From Paecilomyces variotii (Eukaryota): a stretch of DNA of 64,000 nucleotides. Within the stretch, counting starts at the first letter, position 1. Each line of letters starts with the position of its first letter. This document shows, piece after piece, positions 32,383 to 35,963 of this stretch. Below the pieces are notes generated by a model that saw only the letters and a program-made list of their open reading frames with translations, did no database searches and had not been told where the DNA came from. The stretch lies in NCBI GenBank assembly GCA_004022145.1, contig RCNU01000003.1. The stretch is one strand, 5' to 3'. A program made the position numbers and the translations under genes.

Positions 32383-33424
32383 GGTTGGGAAATGGGGATC
32401 GTAAGCCGGAAACGAGATAATGATCTATACGGAAACTGCGCGCCCAGCGGGCTTCGTTTGCGACTTTCAGTTCGGGGCGAGTTCGAGCGCAAGCTTCGTT
32501 AACACCGAAGTTCAAAGGCAGACAACGGACAAACACATCCTTCTCCTGTCCCGCAGCAGCTAAGCTGAGAGTGAGAAGATGAGATAAAACGAGCGGTGGG
32601 AGCGGCGGACTGGGAAGACGGCCTGCTATTGACGGCGATCGAACAATAGAGGCTGCTCGCAGTCGAGGAAGCGCAGGATCAAGTCCGATGCGGGCGATCG
32701 AAGCCGAACTGCGCAGCATCAGTGGTGGTTTTCGTCTGCCGTAGGGTGAGTCAGCAGTCTGTTCGCATTCTGTCTGGATTCTGTCTAGGATGTTACAGTA
32801 ATGTGCTTTATATTTTATTCATTCGGATGGTAATATGCATGCTGTACTTTAAAATAATCATTGGTACCAAAGTTCCAGTATAGAAAGCTGTTCATACTAC
32901 CTTGTGTAATTGTGAGAGTGTATATATATAGTTCGGAAGTTACTCCGCAGCTGCTCTTCCTCCGGAGTCGAGTCCTCAAATACATTGGAAGCTGAACACG
33001 AGAGAAGCAAGTAATCACACTATTCTAAACACATTATTGCTTTATTCAAGCTCAATAATATCAGCTTCACAGTGACTTATGTAGTTTAGGTAACTATGTA
33101 CATACAACGACGACATTGCGGCGGCTTAGTCATCACGACGACCATTGATTGGTGGCTTTGCGGGGAGAAAATGGAAATCCGCAAGAAAGAAATAATAACT
33201 ACAGCCGACTGTCGCGACATCGAATTCTCCATGCGCGCCTCTGTCCTGCTGGATTTGACAAGAGTCGGTCGACCTCTGGAACCCTTACATTCTACTATTC
33301 GTGCTCTCTCCCGACGTCCTTCACGTTCTGCATTTTGTCACCCTTCGATTCATCAGCGCAGGTACCTACGAAACCTGACCCTGACCCCGTCGCAAGCCGG
33401 ACTCCGCTTCGTTCGTAAACCAAT

Positions 33425-35379
33425 ATGGCCGGAGGCGGAGACGGAGGAGGTGGAAGCGGTAAGAAGAGAGATCTGGGAAGGGCAGAGTGGAGGTGTGTTT
33501 GCTTTGTGACAGCCAGTTTTTTTTCCTGTTTCCCGACTAACTAAGCAAGTCGGCAACCATTAGATAAAAGAGAACGGAATGAACAGCAGCAGGAAGCGAA
33601 ACGACGAAAGCTTGAGGCTGGAGAAGAACTCCAGACTCCGATCTACGCGACTCATTTCTCGCAGGAGGAGATCGCCGCGGAGGATAGACGCCCCAAGAAG
33701 AAGGTTGCGGTTTTGATGGGATATTCCGGCACAGGATACCATGGCATGCAATTGTACGATGGCATCTGCTTCTTGACCCCCAATGGATCCAGATGATTAA
33801 TAGCAATTCGCAGGAGTGATAAGGAGAAGACAATCGAGGGGGAGCTCTTCCCAGCATTTGTCGCAGCCGGCGCAATCTCCAAGGCAAATGCGGCAGACCC
33901 TAAGAAATCGTCGCTCGTCCGCTGTGCCCGCACAGACAAGGGTGTGCATGCGGCTGGCAATATCGTTTCTTTGAAGTTGATCATCGAAGACCCAGACATC
34001 GTTCAGAAAATCAATGAGAAACTGAGCCCCCAGATTCGTATTTGGGGTATCCAGCCGACCAACAAGAGCTTCAGCTGCTACCAGATGTGTGATTCCCGTA
34101 TATACGAGTACCTGATCCCGACACACTGCTTCCTACCGCCTCATCCGAGCACATACCTTGGCAAGAAGCTCACGGAGATTGCGGAGAAAACAGGCGATCT
34201 CGAGGGATTGAGAACAAGACAAGAAGAAGTTTCTGGTTTCTGGGACGAAGTTGACGAGAAGCATATCAAACCTATTCTAGTGAGCCTTCCGGAAGATATC
34301 CGGAAACTGGTAGGAAAATCGCTCTATCTAGAAGAACAGGAGAACGCATCTCCCGATGCCGATGTACCAGCGCCTGAGAGCAAGGGACCAGAGGCTCAGC
34401 CCACCGAGACGAAAGCAGAGGAACAGGCAACAGAGAACAAGCCCGCGGACGAAGGAAAAGATACTTCCTCAAAGTCCGGCCGAGGACTTTCCGAGGAGGA
34501 AATGGCACAGAAACAACTCGTCAACTCCGCCATCAAATCCATCAAGTCAGCCTACCTCACCGCAAAACGCGCTTATCGTATCCCTAAAAAACGTCTTGAG
34601 CGCCTCCAAGAGGCTCTAGATCGATATGTCGGTACCAAAAACTTCTACAACTACACCATCCAGAAGACCTTCCGCGACCCTTCCGCCAAGCGCCACATCA
34701 AATCGTTCAACGTGAACCAGGAACCTATAATCATCAACGGCACCGAATGGGTCAGTCTCAAGGTCCACGGCCAAAGCTTCATGATGCACCAGATCCGGAA
34801 AATGGTTGCGATGGCAGCACTCGTCGTCCGATGCGGCTGTGACCCTGAGCGTATTGTCGACACTTACGGCCCCACGAAGATCGCCATCCCCAAGGCTCCT
34901 GGACTCGGCCTATTACTTGAACGCCCCATCTTCGATTCATACAATAAGAGAGTCACGGATTTTGGCAAAGACCCGATCGACTTCAGCAAGTACGAGAAGG
35001 AGATCAACGAGTTCAAGCAGAGAGAGATCTACGAGCGCATCTTCCGCGAGGAAGAGGAGAAGAATAGGTAAGTTATCGAGCTATCTGTTTATCAGATACA
35101 ACATGCACGCAGCAGAGAAATCAATATTACTTGAAACTGACAACGGCATCCAGCTTCGGGGCGTTCTTCAACCACATCGACCATTTCCCCGAGGACAATT
35201 TCCTCTACGTCACCTCTGGTGGACTCGCCGCAGCGAAGCCAGCTGATCAGCCAAAGGGAGACGATAGCGGAGACTCGAAAGAACAGAAGCGTGGGAAGAG
35301 TGCCAGACAAGCCCTAGCAGATGTCGAGGGTGAATCAGAACCCGAGGGCAACATCGGTAATGGTGAAGAAGGTGGTTGA
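33425..35379 (+). CDS. pus1: tRNA pseudouridine synthase 1 (TruA family); introns at 33493-33549, 33753-33813 and 35068-35153; possible alternative start at 33231
   Basis: KKRDLGRAEW | RRPKKKVAVLMGYSGTGYHGMQ | KTIEG, ARTDKGVHAAGN (catalytic Asp), GTKNFYNYT and GQSFMMHQIRKM. Confidence 0.92.
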
Positions 35380-35963
35380 TGGAATGCTCTTGGATCAAGA
35401 ACGCATTTTTGGACGCGACGCGGTTCCCCAGGTCCCGCGCGAAATTTTATGTCATGCCCTTTTGTGGACGAGGTCTTACATCTCTCCTTAAAAGGCAAAA
35501 TTGAACGCTCTAGCAGCAGGAAAATTCGAACTGTAAAAAGTAGCTACTGTCTACAATAGTCGACTGCAACAGCATGTTGAAACAAATAAAATATTAGAAT
35601 TTTCGTCATTGACTCATTGAACAGAACATAACATTAGCATACAATAGAAGGGAAAGGAAAGAACGGATGAAGCATGAATGTTTGTGAGGACAGTTCAAAA
35701 CCGCATCGTCTGTTCCGATTTATCATAAGTCCATCGCTTGAGCAACTGTAACATAGCATAAGAAACGTCGATAGACAACCGTGAACACCAACGGCCCAGG
35801 TAAAAACTGGCAGAGACACCAAACATAGGGATAGAGAAATGAAAGGCCAAAGGAAAGCATAGGGGAAAAAGGATTCCAACAGAAATATGAAAGCTGGCAT
35901 GATCGAGCCGAAATAGTGGACAAAAAGAATCAAATATGTATAATCGCACGAGAAAGAGATTGA

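Follow-up and report, generated by a model that had tools for sequence, protein, structure and literature searches.

The isoforms of human PUS1 are said to arise from in-frame alternative starts. For yeast, the available part of PMC5699540 describes a nuclear Pus1 and a mitochondrial Pus2, the latter acting on U27/28. For Cryptococcus neoformans, the available part of Wallace et al. 2020 (PMC7049704) presents Pus1 (CNAG_06353) as a candidate dual-localised protein with a weak and a strong AUG. Here we describe a gene for a Pus1-type tRNA pseudouridine synthase, encoded on the + strand of a stretch of DNA of 64,000 nucleotides (nt) from Paecilomyces variotii (Byssochlamys spectabilis; contig RCNU01000003.1), which is called the window in the following. 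From the sequence we consider it probable that this gene is a two-key system, in which splice choice and start-codon choice together would make a mitochondrial and a nuclear Pus1, both locations being predicted. The case rests on a conserved distal AG in the first intron, its fixed spacing from a second AG, the asymmetry in the contexts of two ATGs, the junctions seen in RNA, and an open, presequence-like stretch in the Eurotiales.

Two start codons in different frames are present in the first exon. The upstream one (33231..33233), which opens the frame here called M, has the weak context tctccATGc and is the start of the NCBI models P0004 and P0005. The downstream one (33425..33427) opens the N frame, has the strong context ccaatATGg (A at −3, G at +4) and is the start of P0003. 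Their distance of 194 nt (33425 − 33231) is 2 mod 3, so they do not share a frame, and a reading of the sequence by eye showed no further ATG between 33234 and 33425 in any of the three frames. The 194 nt from 33231 to 33424 are coding in the M frame only: 65 codons are open, while the other two frames carry 3 and 1 stops. By composition counts the encoded peptide (MRASVLLDLTRVGRPL...) is presequence-like, being basic, rich in Ser, Thr and Leu, and poor in acidic residues; no Pfam family was matched by this stretch. The following 68 nt (33425..33492) are a dual-coding overlap, translated as MAGGGDGGGGSGKKRDLGRAEW(S) in the N frame and as (I)WPEAETEEVEAVRREIWEGQSG(D) in the M frame. Further upstream the M frame is open back to 33096, with 45 further codons and in-frame ATGs at 33096 and 33171. 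The peptide of 33096-33230 is not presequence-like, and none of the RNA contigs described below (X1, X3, X8) extends upstream of 33221, which has little bearing on the existence of longer transcripts.

Exon 1 ends at 33492, where the joints of all three RNA contigs leave it, and intron 1 begins with a shared 5′ splice site (GAG/GTGTGT, 33493..33498). The branch-site consensus ACTAAC (33536..33541) predicts a branch A at 33540, 9 nt before a proximal AG and 23 nt before a distal one. The proximal 3′ splice site (AAG, 33547..33549) has a weak consensus, lies near the branch and produces the N-type mRNA. The distal 3′ splice site (TAG, 33561..33563) conforms to the consensus YAG, produces the M-type mRNA and serves as M-frame stop on the N-type mRNA. 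The 14-nt segment between the two (33550..33563) belongs to the exon in the N-type mRNA, where it encodes S-R-Q-P-L plus the first base of the D codon, and to the intron in the M-type mRNA. Translation from ATG 33425 via the joint 33492^33550 reads ..AEW-SRQPL-DKRERN and gives a protein of 583 amino acids (aa), letter-identical to P0003. Translation from ATG 33231 via 33492^33564 reads ..GQSG-DKRERN and gives 643 aa without an internal stop, with 99% identity to the NCBI models of other strains (5 residues differ in P0004, 8 positions in P0005). With the acceptors exchanged both frames close: ATG 33425 via 33492^33564 meets an immediate stop (AGA TAA) and ends after 23 codons, and ATG 33231 via 33492^33550 stops in G/TC GGC AAC CAT TAG. 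An earlier note on this DNA, made from the letters alone, had described these ATGs, the donor, the branch, both acceptors and all frames, and had claimed that each start joins the enzyme frame through one acceptor only and stops via the other. On re-reading the sequence every coordinate was right, and translation bore out the claim about the pairing.

A donor-like site, GCG/GTAAGA at 33459-33464, lies inside the overlap and results from the Gly-Lys-Lys codons GGT AAG AAG. If it were joined to the distal acceptor, ATG 33425 would be in frame with the enzyme (MAGGGDGGGGS-DKRERN) and the basic head of the N frame would be left out. The site is used by no RNA contig examined; the same configuration is found in six of the fungal loci considered below (L004, L061, L063, L046, L024, L029).

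RNA contigs were taken from Logan (four runs) and aligned to 32900-35500. Two of them, X1 and X3, stem from an organism, here called A, that is 100% identical to the window, and from two studies, with depths of 16 (X1) and 364 (X3); as assembled contigs drop minor variants, contig depth was not taken as isoform ratio. X8 comes from organism B and is about 98% identical to the window. X1 and X3 skip 33493-33563 (GT..AG) and join 33492^33564, i.e., they use the distal acceptor. X8 skips 33493-33549 and joins 33492^33550 at the proximal acceptor; it has C for T33550, which still gives a Ser codon. Both junctions are therefore real, as the earlier note had predicted for this 14-nt pair, and TAG-33563 is in use. 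That the short form is also made in this very strain is what we infer. The 5′ ends of the contigs (X8 at 33221, X1 at 33229, X3 at 33249) delimit a zone at 33221..33249 that straddles ATG 33231 and is the likely transcription start zone, contig ends not being mapped start sites. Two of the three contigs (X1, X8) include ATG 33231, in line with the expectation that transcripts extend to this codon. The start of the X3 contig at 33249 abuts an Illumina adapter and may mark a site where fragments often end, or else a transcription start that lies downstream of ATG 33231.

In the mechanism that we propose, this putative single Pus1 gene would use one first exon to encode two proteins whose N-termini are unrelated. 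Splicing of one pre-mRNA would yield two mRNAs, exon 2 of one beginning 14 nt earlier than that of the other, and mRNAs starting upstream of 33231 would carry two out-of-frame AUGs, a weak cap-proximal one at 33231 and a strong one at 33425. On the distal-spliced mRNA, AUG 33231 would lead to the presequence-like part of about 65 residues, an acidic linker encoded by the overlap, and the enzyme, 643 aa in total. On the proximal-spliced mRNA, ribosomes leaking past AUG 33231 would start at 33425 and synthesize the 583-aa form, which has the conserved basic head KKRD(L/M)GRxEW-SRQPL and is presumably nuclear. Wrong pairings of start and acceptor (33425 on the distal mRNA, 33231 on the proximal mRNA) would terminate fast. 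The output of each form would thus equal splice choice times start-codon choice: the near AAG versus the far YAG would set the splice ratio, and the weak cap-proximal AUG, perhaps together with flanking start sites, would set the initiation ratio. As the overlap is read in the other frame, the basic N-terminal head would be absent from the mitochondrial form.

In order to follow the arrangement through other fungi, metagenome contigs were scanned with an alignment of 18 Pus1 sequences, which yielded 80 fungal loci. By tblastn, the D(K/R)R site, with which the common region begins, was placed in 73 of the 80; after removal of 14 exact duplicates and one locus at a contig end (L062) 58 were left, or 59 with the window. 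The distal YAG is kept in 48 of these 59 loci at a synonymous position, the codon before D(K/R)R ending in TA or CA. The codons before D in the 48 loci are CTA (17), GTA (9), TTA (7), ATA (7), CCA (6) and ACA (2), so the amino acid varies and the AG is constant. The baseline for A before a codon starting with G is 21% in the long exon of the same loci (n = 10,943 codons), and the binomial probability is 7e-23 if relatedness is ignored. A second AG is located exactly 14 nt upstream in 44 of the 48 loci with a distal YAG. Among these 44 pairs the proximal site reads AAG in 32, and at the distal site 36 have TAG and 8 have CAG; a branch A (in CTAAC, CTAAT or CTGAC) precedes the proximal AG by 8-10 nt in 36 of 43 loci. 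Two loci (L022, L038) have no AG at the distal spot but a CAG 3 nt upstream of it, which gives a spacing of 11 nt and leaves the frame class unchanged. No donor was found by the N-tail motif in four loci, two of them cDNA-like, i.e., resembling complementary DNA (L008, L017), and two others (L014, L055).

According to a quick tree of the long-exon proteins, the acceptor pair is found in the majority of the deep clades with good support. The distal AG is missing from 12 tree rows, whose distribution requires about 8 changes; this agrees with an old origin followed by several losses or remodellings. Locus L040 is 90% identical to Paraphoma chrysanthemicola, a member of the Pleosporales, and its exon 1, read by eye, has the two frames and the two acceptors, so that the arrangement extends over the Eurotiomycetes and the Dothideomycetes at the least. 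Judged from the sequences, it is broader and older than the reader of the single window could see, and the suggested check of both open frames and both AGs in relatives came out in favour of the claim, with the pair in 44 of the 59 loci and the upstream frame open. One clade (L068, L078, L079, L014, L055) is without the 14-nt pair, and L014 is without an intron at this place. L068, L078 and L079 keep a presequence-like upstream frame despite this; L068 and L079 have TAGAG, with a second AG 2 nt on, and in L078 an AG follows 5 nt further on. With either offset, being 2 mod 3, the upstream frame would again be connected to the enzyme, which may be a different way of solving the same problem.

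The contexts of the two start codons differ clearly. At the upstream-frame ATG, position −3 is occupied in 51 loci by C (19), T (17), G (11) or A (4), and G is found at +4 in 4 of 51. At the downstream-frame ATG the same position has A in 33, G in 12, T in 3 and C in 3 loci, and 41 of the 51 have G at +4. In 40 of the 51 the upstream-frame ATG comes first; the median distance between the two is then 26 nt, mostly with no further ATG between. The window fits this pattern of a weak upstream and a strong downstream ATG. Two loci of other fungi, L008 and L017, contain no intron 1 and have near full-length open reading frames (ORFs; 619 aa, complete, in L008; 585 aa in L017), as expected for cDNA-like assembled contigs; they were tallied as having the distal AG only for this reason. 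Each of them shows the proximal junction and both ATGs on one contig, and the upstream-frame ORF of L017 (80 codons) stops exactly at the unused TAG. The asymmetry of the ATG contexts, together with the presence of both ATGs on these proximal-spliced contigs, favours leaky scanning as the way in which the downstream start would be reached. The earlier note had coupled acceptor choice to the choice of transcription start. As stated, this part has no support, since both ATGs occur together with the proximal splice in L008 and L017 and the contexts are weak upstream and strong downstream. Start sites may still contribute, considering that the contig 5′ ends (33221-33249) lie on either side of ATG 33231.

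The character of the upstream peptide was judged by counts of charge and composition and by helical moment. In the window the peptide has 6 basic and 2 acidic residues among its first 30 aa, and 11 basic and 2 acidic among its first 60. Across loci the first 30 aa of the upstream frame have medians of 5 basic and 0 acidic residues, and the median position of the first acidic residue is 41. A net charge of at least +3 with at most one acidic residue was found for 40 of 51 upstream-frame peptides versus 1 of 51 peptides of the other frame. Between lineages the upstream-frame peptides are unrelated in sequence and alike in character. Relative to the N-frame coding stretch, which is rich in Gly and Arg and poor in hydrophobic residues, the upstream frame is +1, and we resampled the overlapping codons synonymously: 0.25 acidic residues per 30 were observed versus 0.65 after resampling, and the observed value was lower in 24 of 28 loci. 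Selection on synonymous sites can thus account for no more than a modest additional loss of acidic residues. In the Eurotiales the presequence-like part lies wholly before the second ATG and is open for 52-114 codons (114 in L004), while the other two frames carry stops. The description of the upstream segment as presequence-like in the earlier note thus stands in part: the frame is open and presequence-like in relatives, with basic, acid-poor peptides in 40 of 51, but the window itself is less clean, having 2 acidic residues in the first 17.

Over the overlap, the N frame shows the motif KKRxMGRxEW and the M frame the motif (V/I)Rxx(I)Wxxxx(G/I). Both are coded by the same bases, and by synonymous resampling an independent M-frame constraint within the overlap is not evident. 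A control with the third frame gave a median open run of 102 codons for the M frame versus 10 for the third frame, which has 233 stops in 4,227 codons. This control was dropped as evidence in view of the expectation from synonymous resampling, and the M frame is open from ATG to donor by construction. Of the six differences listed for the contig X4 (see below) in 33231-33424, four are synonymous, which is only a hint.

Proteins of both types are present in public annotation, as the earlier note would lead one to expect, although annotators made no comment on them; only our reading of these sequences is new. For P. variotii there are models of 583 aa (P0003) and of 643/644 aa (P0004/P0005), for Aspergillus fumigatus models of 577 aa (P0014) and of 630 aa (P0018, 'variant 2'), and for A. 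niger a 611-aa upstream-frame model that is also named 'variant 2' (P0045). Two homologue searches listed 240 database proteins. Among these matches listed, 130 have the short-form head, 15 a clean long-form junction, 69 start within or after exon 2, and 26 are hybrid or truncated. The 15 clean long-form proteins include sequences from Penicillium, from Talaromyces and from Paraphaeosphaeria and Lojkania of the Pleosporales (P0211, P0214). A database search with residues 1-105 of the long form matched only two P. variotii clusters, the presequence being too divergent for a census.

Logan ORFs of A. fumigatus also fall into two types. P0023 (132 contigs), P0013 (20) and P0026 (1) start with MKSVRRGIWEGQNGDKR, which corresponds to the distal junction in the upstream frame. 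P0020 (286 contigs), P0016 (2), P0025 (2), P0019 (1) and P0021 (1) start with MVDKR, so that the 14-nt segment is kept. These ORFs probably derive from RNA, since they are uninterrupted where relatives of the gene have introns. Eight models from Aspergillus section Nigri and relatives (P0035, P0036, P0038, P0039, P0044, P0062, P0064, P0065) combine the upstream frame with the 14-nt segment (..GIWDDPSG-E/A-SRQMVDKR). They need yet another splice and look like compromises of the predictor between both real forms.

Downstream of the acceptors the gene structure was fixed by the RNA contigs X1, X3 and X8. The common part of exon 2 (33564..33753; DKRERNEQQQEAKRRKLE ... GYSGTGYHGMQ) is followed by intron 2 of 60 nt (33754..33813), which is skipped in all three contigs, and by exon 3 (33814..35067), which encodes the catalytic core with the PF01416 domain. 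Intron 3 of 86 nt (35068..35153) is derived from an RNA joint listed as 35065/35152, with a cut of +2, and from the sequence. Exon 4 (35154..35379) runs to the stop codon TGA at 35377-35379.

The gene is a TruA-family Pus1 orthologue by sequence, and formation of pseudouridine at tRNA positions 27/28 is predicted for its product. The best database matches of exon 3 are P. variotii proteins with 99-100% identity. Pfam PF01416 (PseudoU_synth_1) was matched by P0003 with 47 bits and by P0004 with 46.7 bits, the curated cut-off being 23.3. Among solved structures, the nearest chains are 7r9f/7r9g, which carry the name tRNA pseudouridine synthase 1 (E 5.6e-117), and 4iqm (tRNA pseudouridine synthase A, mitochondrial; E 1.4e-67). 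Homologues with names are tRNA pseudouridine synthase 1 or PUS2. Exon 3 contains the motif CARTDKGVHAAGN, in which R130, T131, D132, G134, V135, H136 and A137 are invariant across 18 orthologues; the Asp of RTDKGVHA we take to be the conserved catalytic Asp.

A three-base insertion polymorphism at 34356-34357, present in X4 and X8, adds one Ala to an acidic, low-complexity insert of the enzyme, and the extra A after residue 332 in P0005 is the same polymorphism. X4, from the fourth run, is an unspliced contig of 7,864 nt from a metatranscriptome library and from a relative that is 90-99% identical to the window; it represents DNA carry-over or unspliced RNA. Within 33516-33531, in the pyrimidine stretch of intron 1 before the branch site, X4 has 8 extra bases (6 + 1 + 1) and 3 substitutions compared with the window. 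Changes of this type could shift acceptor choice between strains.

Several observations weigh against the view that the gene makes a mitochondrial and a nuclear enzyme. The window peptide is acidic at D8 and E17 and thereby exceeds the strict limit of one acidic residue within the first 30. A high content of Arg and Ser is common in random GC-rich ORFs. Resampled N-frame codons give a stop-free upstream frame in 36.2 of 54 loci, compared with 43 observed, so openness over the overlap is not evidence; and since the resampled peptides are already poor in acidic residues, part of the presequence look stems from the composition of the other frame. Between strains, the region encoded only upstream shows 1-3 aa differences in 87 residues versus 4-5 in 556 elsewhere, which fits a presequence but also weak constraint. 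No single run contains both junctions, the proximal one being found only in organism B and the runs of organism A showing only the distal one. X3 begins at 33249, past ATG 33231, and has the distal junction; if this is a true 5′ end, neither long product is encoded by that transcript. Among the 59 loci, 11 have no distal AG at the site, and 7 of the 80 (L048, L054, L060, L064, L067, L069, L071) were excluded from the counts, as their tblastn match starts past the DKR site and they could not be placed. Because of the relatedness among the loci, the P values suggest more independence than there is.

One other explanation is unproductive regulatory splicing. The distal acceptor would only lower the level of nuclear Pus1, the upstream ATG would open an inhibitory overlapping upstream ORF, and no working 643-aa mitochondrial enzyme would exist. 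The immediate stop of the ATG-33425 frame on the distal-spliced mRNA is what this explanation demands, and weak-context upstream ATGs are typical of regulatory upstream ORFs according to the available part of PMC7049704. Conservation of the distal AG by itself fits both readings, and the openness of the upstream frame over the overlap is mostly expected from composition. However, the upstream ATG is always in that frame which the 14-nt shift (11-nt in L022 and L038) joins to the enzyme, and the basic, acid-poor character in 40 of 51 loci goes beyond synonymous resampling. The Eurotiales stretch adds to this, as its 52-114 open codons precede the second ATG where the other frames carry stops. 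Moreover, two runs of this species assembled the distal form and 153 A. fumigatus contigs contain it, which is much for a form targeted to decay. We consider regulation without a second enzyme unlikely.

It could also be that P. variotii has one product: the 643-aa form would be the main or only enzyme and would serve both compartments by means of its presequence and an internal basic stretch, EAKRRKLE, with the 583-aa form as a minor variant or a choice of annotation. The distal junction is used by X1 as well as X3, the RNA contigs of organism A, as this explanation expects, and the NCBI clusters of the long model have 6 + 13 member sequences versus 2 for the short model. These model counts are no evidence of use, since gene predictors tend to favour the longest frame. 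Against a single product, the N-frame head KKRD(L/M)GRxEW and the five residues of the 14-nt segment are kept from Eurotiales to Pleosporales, the context of the downstream ATG is strong in most loci, and the relative with about 98% identity (X8) assembles the proximal form. We regard a single product as improbable. That the second frame and the second AG are coincidental in a GC-rich, Gly/Arg-coding exon, whose +1 frame is expected to be stop-free, and that the distal junction is an assembly error, is hardly credible, given the same GT..AG junction from two independent studies at depths of 16 and 364, the identical junction among A. fumigatus contigs, and a synonymous-site AG in 48 of 59 loci with 14-nt spacing in 44.

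Production of a mitochondrial and a nuclear form from one first exon therefore remains the reading that we prefer. A wider version of it can be put forward tentatively: the arrangement may be a device of great age, common to the Eurotiomycetes and Dothideomycetes at least and probably to most Pezizomycotina, in which two independent controls, 3′ splice-site choice and leaky scanning, set the ratio of mitochondrial to nuclear Pus1 and the frame change serves to remove a head that directs the protein to the nucleus. In this version the gene would form a natural, tunable link among the fidelity of the second splicing step, translation initiation and mitochondrial tRNA modification.

If the preferred reading is true, filamentous ascomycetes supply nucleus and mitochondria with Pus1 from one gene, whereas budding yeast employs a gene pair and in-frame starts were proposed for Cryptococcus. 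Two models per gene would then be right and hybrids probably wrong, which would resolve the coexistence of 583 and 643 aa, of 577 and 630 aa, and of the hybrid models of section Nigri. The locus would be a case of long-conserved overlapping coding frames in a cellular eukaryotic gene. A near weak and a far strong acceptor at fixed spacing could act as a natural reporter for 3′ splice-site choice and leaky scanning in fungi. Within the full-text literature searched, to which subscription journals and supplements do not belong, no paper was found that describes such an arrangement for Pus1.

Two known classes were considered and rejected. The in-frame DualAUG class does not apply, as the AUGs are 194 nt apart and out of frame, although the scanning step may be common to both. 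A NAGNAG tandem acceptor is not present either, the spacing being 14 nt and frame-shifting instead of 3 nt and in-frame.

The comparison with the systems introduced at the beginning can now be made, as far as the available parts of the sources go. S. cerevisiae PUS1/PUS2 belong to the same enzyme family and answer the same need, pseudouridine 27/28 in nuclear-encoded and mitochondrial tRNAs (PMC5699540), but with two genes. In Cryptococcus, one Pus1 gene replaces yeast Pus1 and Pus2, and the first AUG has transcript 5′ ends on either side; a weak first AUG, a targeting peptide and a strong second AUG are described for Pus1 and other fungal dual-AUG genes, with leaky scanning as the proposed step (accessible part of PMC7049704). 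The AUGs described there are in frame and involve no splice choice, whereas those of P. variotii are out of frame and need the 14-nt acceptor shift, so that the two P. variotii forms share no N-terminal residues. PTC7 of S. cerevisiae also has mitochondrial and nuclear-envelope forms that depend on a splicing choice near the 5′ end; in what is available of Marshall et al. 2013 (PMC3597508), this is intron retention in one frame, with no second start codon and no frame overlap. The nearest system in logic, judged from the available part of Hurtig et al. 2020 (PMC7491326), is SRC1/HEH2 of budding yeasts and A. fumigatus, where tandem splice sites at a distance of a few bases that is not a multiple of three allow one exon to be read in two frames, and where both frames and the frame class of the shift have long been conserved. 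In SRC1 it is the downstream exon that is read in two frames from one start, which results in a full-length and a truncated protein. Pus1 of P. variotii mirrors this arrangement: the upstream exon has two starts, its two frames converge on one downstream frame, and the proposed outcome is targeting, not truncation.

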